NCBI GenBank assembly: GCA_045863235.1
Contig: BTUM01000114.1
Coordinates: 1 to 21,415 of the forward strand
DNA length: 21,415 nt
Direction: 5' to 3'
Source: Candidatus Xenobia bacterium
GTDB taxonomy: Bacteria > Vulcanimicrobiota > Xenobia > Xenobiales > QWHO01
Positions 4,596 to 14,039 of the stretch are shown piece by piece. The translations under genes and the position numbers were made by a program. The notes under the pieces were generated by a model, which was given only the letters and a program-made list of their open reading frames with translations, did not search any database and was not told the origin of the DNA. Positions within the stretch are counted from its first letter, which is position 1. Every line of letters begins with the position of its first letter.

Positions 4596-6929
4596 TCACG
4601 TGAGCAGCTGGTGATACAGCCGCACCGCCTCCGGCCCGGGGCTGAGGCCCAGCTCGCGCTGCAGGATGCGGCAGTAGTCGTTGTAGCGGCGCACGGCGGT
4701 ATCGCGCAACCCCTGGCCGGCCAGGCAGCGCATCTGGCCGAGCTGGGCTTCCTCGCGGCAGGGATCGAGATCCAGCATGCGCTGGTAGTGCTGGGAGGCC
4801 TCCACGAAGCGGCCCTGGCTCTCCTGGTCGCCGGCCAGAAGATGCAGCAGGCTGAAGACCTTCTCGCTGACGGTGCGTCGCAGCTCCACCACCCACTCCG
4901 ACCACAGCCCCTCCAGGAGCTCGCCGCGATAAAGGGCCACGGCTTGCTCGCCGGCCTGGCGGGCAGCCTGGCTGAGGCGTCCCGAGGCGTCCGGACGGCA
5001 CTGCTCGGCCAGGCGCTCGAGCCGGGCGTAGTCCGAGTCGATCGACAGGGCCGGGTCGAGCGAGAAGAAGCTGCGCTCGAAGACCACGATGGGGCCGGGG
5101 AGGGCGCGCAGGGCCCGGCGGGCGCGCGAGGCGGCGGTGTTGAGGCTCTTGCGGGAGATGTCCGGATTGTCAGGCCAGAGCAACGAGGCCAGTCGCTCGC
5201 CCGGCACCGGGCGGCGGTGGATCACCAGGTACAAGAACAGCTCCAGCGCCTTGCGGCTGGCCCACTCGCCGGCCGGTACGGGTTTGCCTTCCAGCAGCAC
5301 CTCGGGCGGTCCAAAGCAGAGCACCTCCACCGTGGCCTGGGCCGGGGCAGGTTTGGCCGCGGGTGCCACGGCGCCGAGCTGCGGAAAGCGCTCGCGCAGG
5401 GCCTGCAGGGCCTCGCGCTCCAGACCCTGATCCCAGGCAGCCTGCAGCACCGGCGTCAGGTCGCGCACCTCGTGAGGCGAGAAGGGCTCCACCCGGTGGG
5501 CCGCCAGCGAGAGCCATTCGCGCAGCGACTCGGACCACTCGTCGGGCGGCAGCAGCTTCAATCGCAGCGCCAGCAGGCTCTGCAGCCCGGTCAGGTCGCG
5601 CTGGGCGCGGGCCAGGGCCAGGCCCCGCTCGATCAGCTCGCGGGCCATGGGGGCGCGCTCCAGGGCCAGGTAGGTGCGGGCCGCCCGCTCGTACAGGGCG
5701 GGCGCCTGCGAGCCTTCCAGCCCGGCGCGCACCCGGCCCAGCCAGCGCAGAGCCTCCTCGGGGCGTTGGCGCGAAGCCTCCAGCGAGGCCAGCTCGACCA
5801 GCACCTCCAGGTTGTCCTCGCCGTGGACCTGGCGGCACATCTCCCCGGCTTCCAGCAGGGCCTGGCGGGCCGGCTCGTGCTGACCGCCCTGGGCCAGCAT
5901 GGCCCCCAGCCGCAGCAGCGTGCGCCAGCGGCTCTCCTGGGGTCGGGGCGCGGTGCGGGGGGGCTGGCCCTCCTGTCCGGCCAGGGCCAGGCAGACCGAC
6001 ACCACCTCGGGATCGAAGGCCGCTCCGGCCTGAGAGCGCAGCTCCTGGGCGGCTTGCTCGAAGCTCAGGGCCGGGCGGTGGGGGCGCGGGTGGCGCAGGC
6101 TGTCCCACACCTCGGCCACCGTCAGCACCCGCGACTCGATGGGGATCTCGGCCCCCTTCATGGCGCGCGGATAACCGCTGCCGTCGTAGCGCTCGCGCAG
6201 GTTGACGAGCAGGGGAGAGAGCTCGCGCAGGTCGGGCAGGTCTTCCAGCAGGGCCCGCAGGCGGGCCGGATGCTGATCCAGGAGAGCGCGCTCCTCGGGC
6301 GTGAGCACCCGGTTCTGCTGCAGCAGCTCGCGCTCGATCAGGGCCAGGCCCAGGTCGTGCAGCCAGGCGGCCAGCTCGAGCTGATCCAGCTGGTGGGCCG
6401 ACAATCCCAGCTCCACGCCCAGATCCACCGCCAGGGCGGCCACTCTGCCCGCGTGCTCGTAAAGCCAGGGGTCCTTCTCCCAGAACACGCTCACCAGCGA
6501 GGAGATGAGCCGCAGGTAGCGCCCGCGCAGCTCGTCCAGAGCCCGGCGGCCTTCCTTCTCGATCCGGCACAGCTCGGCCGAGTGGCGCACGCTGGCCAGC
6601 AGGCGATCGAGCGGCACGGGCTTGAGCAGGTAGTCGTCCACCCGGTTCTGGATGGCGCGAATGGGAGCATCCTCGCTGGCGTAGCCGGTCATGACGATGC
6701 TGCGCAGCCCCTCCTGCAGGGTGCGCAGGCTGGCCAGCGCCTCCAGCCCGTCCACCCCGGGCATGCGCACGTCGCACAGGATCAGGTCGAGCGGCCGCGA
6801 GCGCGCGATCTCGAGGGCCTCGGAGGCGTTGAGGGCCACCTCCACCTGGTAGCCCTGGGCCTTGAGGGCGCGCTCCAGGCTGCGGGCCACCTGCACGTCG
6901 TCTTCCAGGATCAAGAGGCTGACTTCCAC
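4596..6929 (-). CDS. Multidomain response regulator: REC + degenerate HD-GYP + TPR-like helices + SARP-type winged-HTH/BTAD
   Basis: Intact REC (LEDD, CDVRMPG, MTGY, LLKP). HD-GYP motifs EHAGRV, LHDLG, ERYDGSGYP, IPIESRV, FDPEVV. C-terminal CFGPPEV...RKALELFLYL...LLWP and BTAD LYRGELL...DPCREE...ELGLSPG. Confidence 0.88.
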   Translation of the reverse strand: MEVSLLILEDDVQVARSLERALKAQGYQVEVALNASEALEIARSRPLDLILCDVRMPGVDGLEALASLRTLQEGLRSIVMTGYASEDAPIRAIQNRVDDYLLKPVPLDRLLASVRHSAELCRIEKEGRRALDELRGRYLRLISSLVSVFWEKDPWLYEHAGRVAALAVDLGVELGLSAHQLDQLELAAWLHDLGLALIERELLQQNRVLTPEERALLDQHPARLRALLEDLPDLRELSPLLVNLRERYDGSGYPRAMKGAEIPIESRVLTVAEVWDSLRHPRPHRPALSFEQAAQELRSQAGAAFDPEVVSVCLALAGQEGQPPRTAPRPQESRWRTLLRLGAMLAQGGQHEPARQALLEAGEMCRQVHGEDNLEVLVELASLEASRQRPEEALRWLGRVRAGLEGSQAPALYERAARTYLALERAPMARELIERGLALARAQRDLTGLQSLLALRLKLLPPDEWSESLREWLSLAAHRVEPFSPHEVRDLTPVLQAAWDQGLEREALQALRERFPQLGAVAPAAKPAPAQATVEVLCFGPPEVLLEGKPVPAGEWASRKALELFLYLVIHRRPVPGERLASLLWPDNPDISRKSLNTAASRARRALRALPGPIVVFERSFFSLDPALSIDSDYARLERLAEQCRPDASGRLSQAARQAGEQAVALYRGELLEGLWSEWVVELRRTVSEKVFSLLHLLAGDQESQGRFVEASQHYQRMLDLDPCREEAQLGQMRCLAGQGLRDTAVRRYNDYCRILQRELGLSPGPEAVRLYHQLLT

Positions 6930-8695: not shown

Positions 8696-8753
8696 TCTGT
8701 ATCCGGTCTGTATCCGCTCTGGATCCGATCCTGAAACCGCCCCCGGGTATTCT
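8696..8753 (+). promoter_or_regulatory. Putative activator-dependent promoter: three 11-bp-phased direct repeats plus -10 box
   Basis: TCTGTATCCG (8696-8705), TCTGTATCCG (8707-8716), TCTGGATCCG (8718-8727) and a degenerate CCTGAAACCG (8730-8739). TATTCT at 8748-8753. No recognisable -35. Confidence 0.6.
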
Positions 8754-8784: not shown

Positions 8785-8865
8785 ATGCAGGGAGCCATCG
8801 TCTGGTTGATCGAGAGCGAGCCCGCCCCTTCCGGCGCAACGACCGTATGGATCGAACGGAGGTAG
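8785..8865 (+). CDS. 26-aa upstream ORF MQGAIVWLIESEPAPSGATTVWIERR (not in the ORF track)
   Basis: SD AGGAGG (8773-8778) lies 6 nt before ATG 8785. TAG at 8863-8865 ends 3 nt before, and in frame with, the precursor ATG. Confidence 0.5.
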   Translation: MQGAIVWLIESEPAPSGATTVWIERR

Positions 8866-8868
8866 CCA

Positions 8869-9888
8869 ATGGACGCCATCAGCAACTTTAACGGACTGCA
8901 GCAGTTTCAAACCATCTCCCGCCCGGTGGGAGCATTCCAGGGCTCAGCCCCGGCCGATCAGAACGGCGCCGTCTCCTTCGGGGGGATGAACCTGCAGGTC
9001 GTGCTCGCTCAGATGGTCCAGTCGCTGGACAAGCTGAACCTGGGCTGGAACAGCCTCAACGGTAGCCAGCCCGAGCGTCCGCTGCCCTTCTTCGCCCAGC
9101 TGCTCGAGGGCCAGAACCGCCAGCCGGCCGGTCCCATCGCGGTCACCCAGGCCTATCCCTCCGACAACGAGGACGGTGGCGGGGTGGATCCGAGCCCGCC
9201 CATCGCGGTCACCATGGCCTACCCTTCGGACAACGAGGACGGCGGCGTCGACCAGCCCCCGGTCACCACCGCCAAGTATCCTTCCGACGCTGAGGACGGC
9301 GGGGGCTCGATCCCTCCCCGCCCCGACGGGCCGCCGATGGTCACCATGGCCTACCCGTCCGACAACGAGGACGGCGGCATCGACCAGCCCCCGCCCATCG
9401 CGGTCACCATGGCCTACCCCTCGGACAACGAGGATGGCGGCATCGACCAGCCCCCGGTCACCACGGCCAAGTATCCCTCCGACAACGAGGACGGTGGAGG
9501 CAGCATCCCGCCTCGGCCCGACGGCCCGCCGGTGAACCGTCCCCCGGTCGGCATCCCGCCTCGGCCTGATGGACCGCCGGTCGACCGTGACCCCCGCTTG
9601 ATCGGGCCTCCTGTGGGCGGGCCGATCACCGAGAAGTATCCCTCCGACAACGACGACGGCGGACCGCGCCTCATCGGGCCCCCGGTCACCGAGAAGTACC
9701 CTTCCGACAACGAGGACGGTGGCGTGAGCCCCGGCAACCCGGGCCGCCCCGGCCGTCCCGGAGTCATCCCGGGCAACCCGGGCCGTCCGGGCGGGATCGG
9801 GGGCGTGAGCCCCGGCAATCCGGGTCGCCCCGGCATCCAGATCACGATGAAGTTCCCCTCCGACCAGGAGGACTGGCGCTCGGCCTGA
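8869..9888 (+). CDS. Multi-core microviridin/marinostatin-family (group 1 graspetide) RiPP precursor with 9 cores
   Basis: Leader motif PFFAQLL (9085-9105; cf. the microviridin PFFARFL motif). Nine cores at 9145 TQAYPSDNED, 9211 TMAYPSDNED, 9268 TAKYPSDAED, 9343 TMAYPSDNED, 9406 TMAYPSDNED, 9463 TAKYPSDNED, 9628 TEKYPSDNDD, 9688 TEKYPSDNED and 9844 TMKFPSDQED. SD GGAGGT at 8858-8863. Confidence 0.88.
   Translation: MDAISNFNGLQQFQTISRPVGAFQGSAPADQNGAVSFGGMNLQVVLAQMVQSLDKLNLGWNSLNGSQPERPLPFFAQLLEGQNRQPAGPIAVTQAYPSDNEDGGGVDPSPPIAVTMAYPSDNEDGGVDQPPVTTAKYPSDAEDGGGSIPPRPDGPPMVTMAYPSDNEDGGIDQPPPIAVTMAYPSDNEDGGIDQPPVTTAKYPSDNEDGGGSIPPRPDGPPVNRPPVGIPPRPDGPPVDRDPRLIGPPVGGPITEKYPSDNDDGGPRLIGPPVTEKYPSDNEDGGVSPGNPGRPGRPGVIPGNPGRPGGIGGVSPGNPGRPGIQITMKFPSDQEDWRSA
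9136..9873 (+). repeat. Intragenic coding repeats: core cassettes, duplicated two-core block, IPPRPDGPP and PGNPGRPG units
   Basis: The block PIAVTMAYPSDNEDGG(V/I)DQPPVTTAKYPSD(A/N)EDGGGSIPPRPDGPP occurs twice (about 9199-9336 and 9394-9531). PRLIGPPV occurs twice and PGNPGRPG three times. Differences are mostly at third codon positions. Confidence 0.9.
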
Positions 9889-9902
9889 GGCCGGTGACGG
9901 GC

Positions 9903-9939
9903 GGGCCCGGGGCTTTCCAGGGAGGAAGGTTCCGGGCCC
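9903..9939 (+). terminator. 16-bp GC-rich hairpin between convergent genes (probable terminator/mRNA stabiliser)
   Basis: GGGCCCGGGGCTTTCC-aggga-GGAAGGTTCCGGGCCC. The three non-Watson-Crick positions are G-U pairs on the + strand. No U-tract. Confidence 0.65.
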
Positions 9940-9949
9940 CGCGGCGCTC

Positions 9950-10723
9950 TCAGGCCAGAAAGCGCCGCCCCAGCCTGCGGACCGCGAAAAACGAGAGAGC
10001 CAGACCCACCACCGCCAGGTAGAGGGCGTTCAGCCCCACCCCGTCCCACTCGCCCCGCACGATGCCGCGCATCATGTGCACCGCGTTGTAGAGGGGAGTC
10101 AGCTCGGCCACTGTGATCAGGGCGGGTGGGAAGCGCTCCTCGATGGGGAAGAAGATGCCCGAAAAGACGAAGGACGGGGTCACGAACAGCGTCCAGAAGT
10201 AGGTATAGAGGTCGATGCTGTCGATCAGCGAGGTGAAGGCGGTGCCGATGGCCGCGAAGCAGAAGCCGATCAGGGGCAGGGCCGCCAGGGCCAGCAGCAG
10301 CCGGGGGGTCAGGGGCACCCCGAAGAACAGGGTGATGGCCAGGAAGGCCGTCCCGTACAGGGTGGCCCGGGTGACGGCCCACAGGATCTCGCCCGCGGCC
10401 ACGTCCTCGAAGCTGAGCGGGGTGGCCACCATGGCGTCGTAGATCTTGGAGAAGTGCAGCTTGACGAAGATGTTGTAGGTGGTCTCGAAGATCCCCCCGT
10501 TCATGGCCGAGGCGGCCACCAGCCCGGGGGCCACGAAGGCCGTGTAACCTCCCTCGAACTGTCCGCCGGCGGCCACATAGGCCCCCAGCCCCACGCCCAT
10601 CCCCAGCAGGTAGAAGACGGGCTCGAAGAAGTTGGGCAGGATGTTGTAGACCCAGCGCTTGCTGTAGACCCAGAGATTGCGCTCCCACACCCGGGTGGCG
10701 CCTCGCAGGCTGAGGCGCCTCAC
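9950..10723 (-). CDS. ABC-2 type exporter permease (NodJ-like)
   Basis: VWERNL...FEPVFYLLGMGVGLG, YTAFVAPGL, YDAMVATPL, GEILWA, FSGIFFP, TPLY; six TM segments. GTG start at 10723 overlaps the ATPase stop. The ORF-track extension to 11119 is shadow sequence. Confidence 0.9.
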   Translation of the reverse strand: MRRLSLRGATRVWERNLWVYSKRWVYNILPNFFEPVFYLLGMGVGLGAYVAAGGQFEGGYTAFVAPGLVAASAMNGGIFETTYNIFVKLHFSKIYDAMVATPLSFEDVAAGEILWAVTRATLYGTAFLAITLFFGVPLTPRLLLALAALPLIGFCFAAIGTAFTSLIDSIDLYTYFWTLFVTPSFVFSGIFFPIEERFPPALITVAELTPLYNAVHMMRGIVRGEWDGVGLNALYLAVVGLALSFFAVRRLGRRFLA

Positions 10724-11751: not shown

Positions 11752-13896
11752 TCAAGTCTTTGTTGAGGTTGGTGGCTTTCCATTCTTCTCTCGAAGCCAT
11801 GCCTCTACGTCGGAGCGGAGCACCCAGTAGCGCCGCATCCCCAGTTTCCCGGGAGTGGTGACAAAGGTCAACCTTCCCTTGCTTATGGCCCATCTGATGG
11901 GTTGCGTCGAGGCCGCTCCTATCAGCTCCTGAATTTCGATCAGTGACATGTGCTCCGGCGACGGGCGCTGCTTCTCCCATAAGGGACGCTTCCGCATTTG
12001 GAGCCAGGCCTCCAACTCGTCCGGCTTGATATAGAGGATTGGTTGGCCCCTCACCATGAGCTTGTGTGCCTGCAGATTCCCGCTCTTGTAGGCGGAAAAG
12101 AGGGTCGCGGCGGGGATGCCCCTCGATTTCGCGGCTTCACGGAGACTGAGCATACCTTCCGTATCGGGATTGCGTTCTTCGTTCCAACGTCGAACGTCCG
12201 CCACGTCAACCCAGAGCTGATCGATCACCCTGATGGCCGAAATCTCCTGGCGGTGGATGGCATTGTACAGCTGGGACAGGCCGACGCCGGCGGCTCGTGC
12301 CGCTTCTTCCGGACGGACCCAGCCCGGGGGAGCTTTGCGGATTTTCCTTTCGGGTCGGGGTTTCTTCTCGGGCCGGGAGGCCCGGAACGTCCGATAAGGC
12401 TGGCCCTCAGCTTGGCGAGTCCTCCGAGGCTTTGGGCGGGACATCGGCCGTGGCTGTGGCTGCTGGGAGAGGCCCCACCAGTTCTCCAGATCGTCGGTGC
12501 GGATCCAGTATGTCTGCTTGGGTTTGATCGCGGCCAGTTGCCCGCTATGGACAGCCGCCGTGATGGTATCGGGGGGGGCCTTGAGTCGGCTCGCAGCCTG
12601 GGCGATCGTCACCATGTCGGGTCCCGGAGCCGGTTCGCTCCCCTGCCAGGTAGATCTTGACTCCAGCCAGCTGCTCAGCTCTTCCTCATGGACCCAGATT
12701 TGGGCAGGGACGGTCTGGTTCGGCTGCCGCTCGCGTCTCAAGCAAGGGAGCTTCCTGGCCAGGCAGGCCTCGCGCAGGATAACCGAGCCCACTCCGCTCA
12801 GACGTGATGCCTCTCGGATCGTAAGGTAACCCGAGCCCGGCCGGTCGGTGCGAGAATCGAGCAGGTGTGACCAGATCCATGCGTTGAGATCGACTCGCAG
12901 AATCCACCAACGAGGTCCGAAGGGTCCATCCGTGTAGAGCGAAGCCAGCTCGCCGGAGGCCACGGCCTTCCGCAAACGTTCTGTCCATTTGAGGGACGCG
13001 GCCACGGCCGCCTCCTTCAAATTGACGTACCCGGGGCCAGGCCGGCCGATATCGCGCTCGCGCAGGCGTTCTCTGGCATCGGGGAACTCCTGATGCCAGG
13101 CCTGCAATTCTGAGAGCTCGATTCCATAAAACCAGCGCCGTCGGTAGCGTCGATGCGCCGGGAACTCACCCGCCCGCACCAGGCGATTGACCTCCTCGAC
13201 CGTATCCAGCCCCAGAAAATCTCGCGCTTGCTCGGCAGTGAGCAAGGCGCTCTTTTTGGAAGTGGGCTGGCCTCTCAACAGCTCCAAATCCTGCTCGCGT
13301 ACCGCTTGCTCGGCAGTGAGAAAGGAACTCTTGTGGGAAGTGGGCGGGCCTCCCCACTGCTCGAGATCCTGCTCGCGCACCCACCATTGGGGCCTCGGAA
13401 TCGAGGGCGTCTTGCGAGCTGGGAGTTGGCCCGTCTTGATGGCATTGAGTAAGGTCCCCCGAGAACGCAGACCAAGCCGATCCGTGGCTTCCAGCAGGCT
13501 GAGATAATCGGGGCCCGGTCGCCCCAGGTCGACCAACCCTTGCTCCTCGCGTTGCCGGAGATAGTCTTCCAGGTCCTCCGGTAGGATCCAACTTCGCCCG
13601 TTGGGCGTTCGAGCCGATTTGAGGTAGCCGTTTTTCACAGCCCTGAAGATCGAATTCACGGGCAGACCGGCGCGCTGCGCAGCCTCCTTGCAGCTCATGT
13701 GCTCGGGGCCTGGCTGAAAGCCGAGGGTCACCCCTCGCGACACCAGCCATCGATCCAGGTCGTCCTGATCGACCTCCTTGCGTCGGAGGATCTTGTTCCA
13801 TCGGGCAGTCAATTTGCCTTTGGCGATGTGTCGCTCGAGAGTTGACCTGGTCAGGCAGAGCAATGCGGCAGCTTTGTCGAAATCAATCCAGGCCAT
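11752..13896 (-). CDS. Protein of ten tandem excisionase/MerR-like (HTH_17-type) helix-turn-helix domains, 714 aa
   Basis: Ten units of about 50 aa follow the pattern (L/M)(S/T)xxEAAxxxG...xxxAxxxGxL.A...(W/Y)(I/V)xxxDLxxW, many joined by (R)PGP(D/G/E) linkers. Start set at ATG 13896 (MAWIDFDKAA); an in-frame ATG at 13983 is an alternative. Confidence 0.82.
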   Translation of the reverse strand: MAWIDFDKAAALLCLTRSTLERHIAKGKLTARWNKILRRKEVDQDDLDRWLVSRGVTLGFQPGPEHMSCKEAAQRAGLPVNSIFRAVKNGYLKSARTPNGRSWILPEDLEDYLRQREEQGLVDLGRPGPDYLSLLEATDRLGLRSRGTLLNAIKTGQLPARKTPSIPRPQWWVREQDLEQWGGPPTSHKSSFLTAEQAVREQDLELLRGQPTSKKSALLTAEQARDFLGLDTVEEVNRLVRAGEFPAHRRYRRRWFYGIELSELQAWHQEFPDARERLRERDIGRPGPGYVNLKEAAVAASLKWTERLRKAVASGELASLYTDGPFGPRWWILRVDLNAWIWSHLLDSRTDRPGSGYLTIREASRLSGVGSVILREACLARKLPCLRRERQPNQTVPAQIWVHEEELSSWLESRSTWQGSEPAPGPDMVTIAQAASRLKAPPDTITAAVHSGQLAAIKPKQTYWIRTDDLENWWGLSQQPQPRPMSRPKPRRTRQAEGQPYRTFRASRPEKKPRPERKIRKAPPGWVRPEEAARAAGVGLSQLYNAIHRQEISAIRVIDQLWVDVADVRRWNEERNPDTEGMLSLREAAKSRGIPAATLFSAYKSGNLQAHKLMVRGQPILYIKPDELEAWLQMRKRPLWEKQRPSPEHMSLIEIQELIGAASTQPIRWAISKGRLTFVTTPGKLGMRRYWVLRSDVEAWLREKNGKPPTSTKT
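13225..13380. repeat. In-frame 78-bp tandem duplication within the multi-HTH gene
   Basis: 13225-13302 vs 13303-13380 are 66/78 identical by manual alignment. They encode VREQDLEQWGGPPTSHKSSFLTAEQA / VREQDLELLRGQPTSKKSALLTAEQA. Confidence 0.92.
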
Positions 13897-13961
13897 GGGC
13901 GGGAGTTTCGAACCTGGCCCGGTTCGCTCCTTGCTCCTGTGAAACCCGCTGGGTGGGCAGG

Positions 13962-14039
13962 GCCACTCGACTGGATCACGCATGCTACACCAGGTGACCG
14001 GGTCACCCGCCGGTACCATGCGTGCTCCACCCGAGTGGC
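13962..14039. repeat. 78-bp imperfect inverted repeat (long hairpin)
   Basis: Paired blocks GCCACTCG/CGAGTGGC, TGGA/TCCA, CACGCATG/CATGCGTG, TAC/GTA and GGTGACC/GGTCACC are centred on 14000. It starts immediately after the stop codon of the 14040..14585 gene. Confidence 0.85.

Follow-up and report, generated by a model that had tools for sequence, protein, structure and literature searches.

P0001, a 339-amino acid protein encoded on contig C114 of a bacterial genome (G000), belongs to the microviridin/marinostatin precursor family, as judged from family models, its leader, and its cores, and has a single leader and nine microviridin-type cores. Orthologs are found in three congeners, with six (L045), seven (L044), and at least eight (L043) cores, and, judged by its substitution pattern, P0001 is an orphan under purifying selection in these congeners. 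Taken as a whole, our reading is that a pair of ligases encoded on contig C57 probably closes the rings of P0001 in trans, which would yield a serine-protease inhibitor of multiple specificities, with a slight lean toward an uncleaved chain.

The P0001 gene and its host

The DNA analyzed here (the window) is the whole of contig C114, 21.4 kb, from a genome of 8.36 Mb with 65.8% GC and 97.6% completeness. The host probably belongs to the phylum Eremiobacterota (Vulcanimicrobiota at NCBI), for which the labels conflict. In a genome search, G000 and the genomes with P0001 orthologs formed one genus, which sits in a class of 44 genomes that we take to be Xenobia, within a phylum in which one other large family predominates. 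Close strains of the host come from wastewater, soil, bioreactor, and sludge runs.

The gene (8869..9888, + strand) begins shortly after a Shine-Dalgarno-like GGAGG. A sequence-only reading had described the 339-codon frame, a PFFAQLL leader, and nine cores, eight of them followed by GG, and all of these were recovered; the check that it proposed against precursor models gave scores well above cut-off for both NF033738 (129.9 bits, cut-off 26) and PF12559 (89.5 bits, cut-off 21). The ligase-recognition motif PFFAQLL (residues 73-79; 9085..9105, + strand) has Gln in place of the Arg of cyanobacterial leaders. Among the 72 residues that precede it is a conserved, probably helical stretch (residues 41-60; 8989..9048, + strand), which leader alignment and blastp show to be common to the ligase-linked paralog on contigs C53 and C57. 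A hydrophobic signal peptide was not found in P0001.

The nine cores follow the pattern T-x-[K/A]-[Y/F]-P-S-D-x-[E/D]-D, with Lys at position 3 in five and Ala in four; the consensus TxKxPSDx(D/E)(D/E) is thus fully matched by five, the others having Ala for Lys. Along the + strand they are core 1 (9145..9174; predicted P1 Gln, Ala3, at most bicyclic), core 2 (9211..9240; P1 Met, Ala3), core 3 (9268..9297; P1 Ala, Lys3, which can be tricyclic), core 4 (9343..9372; P1 Met, Ala3), core 5 (9406..9435; P1 Met, Ala3), core 6 (9463..9492; P1 Ala, Lys3), core 7 (9628..9657; P1 Glu, Lys3), core 8 (9688..9717; P1 Glu, Lys3), and core 9 (9844..9873; P1 Met, Lys3, Phe4). The predicted P1 residue is therefore Met in four cores, Ala in two, Glu in two, and Gln in one. 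GG directly follows every core except the last, after which the protein ends in WRSA-stop, the Trp coming directly after the core. Residue 10 is acidic in all nine cores, as in those of the C53/C57 precursor, and in none of the seven cores of a precursor on contig C84. When the protein was shuffled 100,000 times, two or more cores never arose and a single core arose twice. The spacers had been called long and rich in Pro and Gly: the composition is right (55% Pro plus Gly), but the length holds for only two of the eight (45 and 42 amino acids), the other six having 9-15.

The 16 other window ORFs scanned include a cation antiporter, a two-component pair, a GspF/PilC-like protein, an ABC-2 pair, and HTH, PilZ, GH114, and TPR proteins. 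A profile scan of these 16 for ATP-grasp, GNAT, and peptidase families returned no matches, which bears out the earlier statement that no ligase, acetyltransferase, or peptidase lies near the gene. The NodI/NodJ-like ABC-2 transporter, which that reading had passed over, lies immediately downstream and is convergent. As a dedicated exporter this pair is unlikely, given its orientation and the presence of the pair (79-83% identical) without an adjoining precursor in the congener G004. Further along, a region of lower GC (62-63%) with multiple HTH_17 (excisionase-like) domains (window 11752-14000, - strand) is missing from the orthologous loci L044 and L045 and is a recent insertion.

Ligases and other precursor loci in the genome

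A search of G000 with TIGR04184 and TIGR04185 gave four strong matches, all below the curated cut-offs. On C57, an MvdD-type ligase (1967-2908) has MdnC as its best solved relative (5ig9, E 2.8e-83), and an MvdC-type ligase (1020-1952) has MdnB (5ig8, E 5.7e-73). The two score 384 and 291 bits against equivalog cut-offs of 475 and 425, respectively, and both keep the ATP-binding/catalytic K,K,D,E,N columns intact. The sequence-only reading had made itself dependent on such ligases being present somewhere in the genome, and the C57 pair supplies them; its picture of a stand-alone multi-core precursor in a high-GC lineage likewise held, with the ligases encoded elsewhere.

The C57 pair belongs to the main cluster (G000:C53:54602-55043 and C57:1-2959), in which a precursor, split between two contigs (end of C53, start of C57; 55-nt overlap), is followed directly by the MvdC- and MvdD-type genes. 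This precursor has at least 17 Lys cores and poly-Gly spacers, and its orthologs have 17 (G001), 15 (G004), and 19 cores by the strict or 20 by a looser pattern (G003). No GNAT, peptidase, or transporter was found among 19 ORFs scanned around the intact cluster of G001. P0001, which had been called unusually large, is so relative to the five cores described for class II microviridin precursors but not within its lineage, where the same genome reaches at least 17 cores and congeners 15-20.

Two further loci lie beside ligase-like genes. The C84 locus, with a 7-core Arg/Ala precursor and one MvdD-type gene, looks like a marinostatin type. On C156 and C148 (G000:C156:2-1000 with C148:8243-9211, - strand, 55-nt overlap; similar in L106 and L108), a precursor with four Ala cores and GIEAPEP repeats stands before a divergent MvdC-like gene in which the ATP-binding lysines are missing and which is followed in G000 by what appears by eye to be a phosphoribosyltransferase-like gene. 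Short orphan precursors in which a twin-arginine-like N-terminus precedes the PFF leader are encoded at G000:C93:28869-29276 and G000:C33:24442-24804 (- strand), and further ones at L060 (G019:C181) and L107 (G001:C33). The C93 and C33 types carry a second PFF/PFW motif at the C-terminus; their twin-arginine-like N-terminus recurs in three other G000 proteins without cores, and TatC is encoded in the genome. In all, the microviridin-type precursor loci of G000 number at least six; three adjoin ligase-like genes and three are orphans, two of the latter with the Tat-like N-termini.

Other repeat proteins were seen in the course of this survey. The precursor at G000:C53:43250-44940 (+ strand; ortholog in L053) adjoins its own MvdD-like ligase and has a different core type, AKHETDRDE, repeated three times; its leader is PFFGRFL, and it ends with a motif that again resembles a leader. 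Long Glu-Lys repeat proteins at G000:C45:59337-62646 and C108:21494-23828 (both - strand) each lie directly upstream of two ATP-grasp-like genes; these loci possibly represent an undescribed lactam-rich graspetide class. A V-x-x-G-V-x-V-x-basic motif is C-terminal in 40 G000 reading frames (e.g., C84:29433-30155 and C156:2658-3962) and internal in 7, and is possibly a lineage-specific C-terminal sorting signal. One gene with this ending stands between the C84 precursor and its ligase.

Proposed modification and form of the product

In the reading that we favor, the PFFAQLL helix would dock on C57 MvdD, which would close Thr1-Asp7 and Ser6-Glu/Asp9 lactones on each core, after which C57 MvdC would close a Lys3-Asp10 lactam on the five Lys cores. 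P0001 would thereby lose at most 23 waters and become a mix of bicyclic and tricyclic units. The ring chemistry applied here is that of PMC5934393 and PMC13039773, cited, like the other articles below, from the portions available to us. The residue after Thr (Gln, Met, Ala, or Glu) would be the P1 residue of each core and, as it varies, the product would be a serine-protease inhibitor with several specificities; in the mature microviridins J and L, position 5 sets specificity (PMC7823629). The product would be trimmed of its leader and would otherwise be uncleaved, or randomly clipped, as a multivalent chain.

The same modification in trans could also be followed by cutting at the GG after each core and trimming, to give a cocktail of single microviridins, an outcome that we consider quite possible though short of probable. 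As expected of a cleavage signal, GG follows all 38 non-terminal cores in the orthologs, and class II precursors have been described with double-glycine sites and C39 transporters (PMC13039773). Also present in the genome are two C39 domains in frames of their own and one frame bearing M1 aminopeptidase motifs, and LEGQ after the P0001 leader motif resembles the LEEQ/LAEQ site of NosP, which is encoded 0.8 Mb from its cluster (PMC13039773). On the other hand, the genome has no peptidase-fused (C39-ABC) transporter, its two C39 matches being confined to frames of 226 and 283 amino acids away from the precursor loci, and a double-glycine leader consensus was not found in P0001. Moreover, GG directly after the core goes with Lys-type precursors: none of the 53 cores of non-Lys precursors has it there, though in some GG comes two residues further on, and in the C53/C57 precursor it lengthens to runs of 4-8 Gly. 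It thus looks like a flexible spacer, and the P0001 spacers are Pro-rich besides. Among 57 homologs, 13 hold their cores between an N-terminal region and a C-terminal region of 114-197 amino acids, and P0070, P0071, and P0076 carry leader and cores within proteins of 603-948 amino acids. Because there is no peptidase-fused transporter and no double-glycine leader site, and because homologs hold cores in large proteins, we judge an uncleaved multivalent chain and dedicated release of single cores to be about equally likely, with a slight lean to the chain.

As an observation apart, cores lie inside proteins of 440-950 amino acids in P0010, P0030, P0049, P0066, P0070, P0071, and P0076, some of which have no PFF leader. 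An Atlas search with a myxobacterial accessory domain gave no usable match. The long Ser/Asn/Gln-rich N-terminus of P0001 might serve to direct export through the flagellar apparatus. Export by an injectisome was considered and set aside, as only the flagellar FliI and FlhA pass cut-offs in the genome; besides flagellar flhA, contigs C80, C3, C1, C106, and C107 of G000 hold five partial matches to FlhA/FHIPEP, most of which cover the C-terminal half of the model.

Candidate ligases for P0001

By blastp, the P0001 leader is closest to that of the C53 paralog (E 4e-13), followed by those of C84 (5e-4) and C156 (0.04); the leader tree is mostly unresolved, including the branch that joins P0001 and C53. 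On this leader similarity, P0001 is a paralog of the main microviridin precursor of the genome (C53/C57).

Lys cores and MvdC-type genes go together across the class. Three or more Lys cores occur in 12 of the 44 genomes, 10 of which have a full MvdC-type gene, while the other two are G003, with an MvdC fragment at a contig end, and G002 (65% complete), with none; in five genomes with an MvdD-type gene only, Lys is found in 0 of 31 cores. These counts, like those for covariation below, overstate independence because the genomes are kin. A gene was taken as MvdC type when its TIGR04185 score exceeded its TIGR04184 score, in agreement with the ligase tree. Left out of the count were G033 (one stray match, no ligase), single stray non-Lys matches, G021 (one ligase, no cores found, 75% complete), and G098 (two ligase matches of unassigned type, no cores).

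A second line of evidence comes from the leader and its docking site. Arg17 of the MdnA leader contacts Glu191, Asp192, and Asn195 of MdnC (PMC7823629). Among MvdD ligases paired with an Arg/Lys leader, all 9 have Asp at the Asp192 position, against 1 of 10 paired with another, the exception being G027; two of these 19 pairings (G015 and G005) span contigs, and, with kin among the genomes, nominal p-values are given no weight here. C57 MvdD has Ser at this position, as does its G004 ortholog (77% identical), which is beside a Gln leader. Structure prediction for P0001 residues 36-106 with the MvdD dimer gave a score of 0.74 (best control, 0.06) and an interface at residues 70-84; among solved pairs 51 of 78 reach the score mark used, as do 2 of 108 mismatched ones, and passing it does not tell which family member binds. 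The pLDDT of the partner was 43-45, and contact agreement between runs was at least 37%. Because the model resembles the solved MdnC-leader complex, we take it as a likeness rather than as binding. Paralogy, Lys-core/MvdC co-occurrence, and leader/ligase covariation lead us to favor modification of P0001 in trans by the C57 pair.

The C84 MvdD, which also has no Asp at the Asp192 position, could be the enzyme for P0001. Were P0001 served only by a lactone-forming ligase, whether this one or C57 MvdD, all cores would be bicyclic and marinostatin-like and the Lys residues would not be cross-linked. Four of nine cores without Lys, and Asp rather than Glu at position 10, would suit such an outcome. 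We nevertheless find it unlikely: Lys cores are kept in every ortholog (four or five each), Lys together with an acidic residue 10 accompanies MvdC-type genes across the class, and the published consensus allows either Asp or Glu at position 10 (PMC5934393).

Conservation of the orphan gene

The three orthologs sit behind the same two-component, GspF, and pilin-like genes, the same ABC pair lies downstream in both loci that extend far enough to include it, and none has a ligase gene beside it. Versions of P0001 with 7 and 6 cores come from two of five metagenome loci, and L092 is apparently identical to L045 in this gene. Against five orthologous sequences, pN/pS is 0.05-0.21 over codons 1-104. 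Core number differs among the orthologs while the ring-forming residues stay invariant: across the 43 cores of six orthologous sequences, Thr1, Pro5, Ser6, Asp7, and Asp10 never change, with synonymous variation present.

This pattern bears on whether P0001 is modified at all. It might be, or have become, unmodified: a disordered acidic protein, a decoy for titrating the ligases, or what is left of a duplicated cluster. There is no ligase on the contig; contigs from RNA runs (4 of 16 runs, each overlapping part of the window and none half of it) cover P0001 and its unrelated neighbors at similar low depth; and no ortholog was found in the 97%-complete G004, where the flanking genes are on separate contigs. 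Yet the invariance of the ring-forming residues and the low pN/pS speak against disuse, as does an upstream region of 180 bases that is 90-97% identical in congeners, and nine intact cores would be superfluous in a decoy, for which the leader is what matters. We regard an unmodified P0001 as very unlikely. That the orphan position is an assembly artefact, with the ligases really adjoining the gene, is hardly credible: other large precursors are indeed broken at repeats (C53/C57 and C156/C148, with their 55-nt overlaps), but this gene lies inside its contig with flanks of 8.8 and 11.5 kb, and its neighbors recur in L044, in L045, and, on the upstream side, in L043, a synteny across independent assemblies that contradicts such an error.

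Candidate regulatory elements around the gene

An unannotated 26-codon ORF with its own AGGAGG site (8785..8865, + strand) ends within the ribosome-binding site of P0001. Its peptide is identical in seven of seven sequences, the three differences in L044 all being synonymous, and it has no paralog in the genome; the arrangement suggests translational coupling to P0001. Farther upstream, three 11-bp direct repeats (CTGTATCCG-type; 8697..8729, + strand), conserved in congeners, precede a possible -10 hexamer (8748-8753) and are a candidate activator site. Allowing one mismatch, the repeat has one other site genome-wide, against one match for the control. A sigma-70 scan found no promoter upstream of P0001. 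A response regulator with HD, winged-helix, and BTAD domains, encoded near the gene (window 4596-6929, - strand), is a candidate reader of the repeats.

In our reading P0001, which sits apart from the enzymes, has a regulatory region of its own. Two further ideas were dropped: a shared regulon, as neither the C53 nor the C84 precursor is preceded by the 11-bp repeat and clear matches to the upstream region were confined to the four orthologous loci among the 44 genomes, and a structured RNA upstream, as there was no Rfam match near the gathering score and 0 of 35 predicted pairs covary. Between the gene and the convergent ABC permease lies a GC-rich hairpin (9886..9955; -44.7 kcal/mol, a value without a shuffle control), a possible transcript end that a terminator scan did not call.

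Distribution and relation to known systems

A tandem-core DNA pattern was found in 15 of 401 genomes of the phylum, all within the 44 of the class. G013, an assembly of 20 contigs, has two orphan precursors, with no ligase match in the ca. 38-40 kb around each and one MvdD-type gene elsewhere; precursor dispersal thus recurs in another family. Among 57 database homologs, 6 have 10-15 cores, and an MvdD-like gene adjoins the precursor in five of six distant loci.

The prochlorosins (ProcM/ProcA) are a known case of dispersed precursor genes that share a single modifying system; they differ in their lanthipeptide chemistry and single hypervariable cores, those of P0001 being conserved and in tandem.

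Among the closest described systems are the class II microviridins, such as AMdnA of Anabaena PCC 7120 with AMdnC and AMdnB, which share with P0001 one PFF-type leader and tandem TxKxPSDx(D/E)(E/D) cores, and with its host a genome that encodes MvdD- and MvdC-type ligases. Up to five cores are described for class II (PMC13039773), and AMdnC processed up to four distributively (PMC5934393). P0001, in contrast, has nine cores, mixed Ala/Lys cores, 72 residues before the leader motif, and Gln for Arg within it; it comes from a different phylum, lacks the double-glycine site and C39 transporter characteristic of the class, and, unlike precursors of canonical clusters, has no ligases beside it on C114. 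The marinostatin-type bicyclic graspetides share with P0001 what its four Ala cores can form, namely two lactones only, and absence of the lactam ligase leads to bicyclic products (PMC7823629). P0001 differs from them in the bicyclic and tricyclic cores predicted on one chain and in having no ligase beside it. A precedent for a multi-domain product is plesiocin, a group 2 graspetide with several bicyclic cores, four core motifs in one molecule (10.1101/2021.03.09.434688), although its core motif is TTxxxxEE and it has a single ligase.

For Ca. Eudoremicrobium, which belongs to the phylum named in the label of ortholog L045, Paoli et al. (2022) list "Microviridin" and "Glycosylated Microviridin" regions, as predicted clusters of the antiSMASH type only, and propose a predatory lifestyle (PMC9259500); the available text gives no account of core number, orphan precursors, or products for these clusters. 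In the literature found, orphan microviridin precursors or ones with more than five cores are not described, although the supplements of Ahmed 2017 and Lee 2020 may list such; nor did we find anything joining microviridins with Eremiobacterota or with the twin-arginine system, Tat export of a graspetide being undescribed there. The accessible portions of PMC12848669, PMC11626197, and PMC12838216 contain nothing on a P0001-like architecture. The survey of Makarova et al. kept precursors of at most 150 amino acids beside an ATP-grasp gene and, in the part available, did not address trans connections (PMC8939145). P0001 fails both filters; long, dispersed precursors may therefore have been missed.

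Implications

The chemistry is known, but the literature found offers no description of precursors on this scale (9-20 cores), of their dispersal, or of the form in which the rings might be displayed on a protein. For this lineage and the myxobacteria-like ones together, we tentatively suggest, while holding it to be somewhat doubtful, that the rings serve as a protein modification and not as a way to small peptides: one or two ligase sets would act on dispersed long precursors, which would be exported whole as multivalent protease-inhibitor chains of several specificities, with copy number evolving through repeat expansion, and might, for example, shield a contact predator from the proteases of prey or grazers. 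Gln and Glu at P1 could mean targets outside those of the variants described in the sources at hand. Ligases that process 9-20 cores, together with leaders that have no canonical Arg, would extend the enzymology past the four cores of AMdnC and would provide a scaffold for multivalent protease inhibitors. With three genes in E. coli, the system would also allow a direct test of whether, and how, multi-core microviridins are released.
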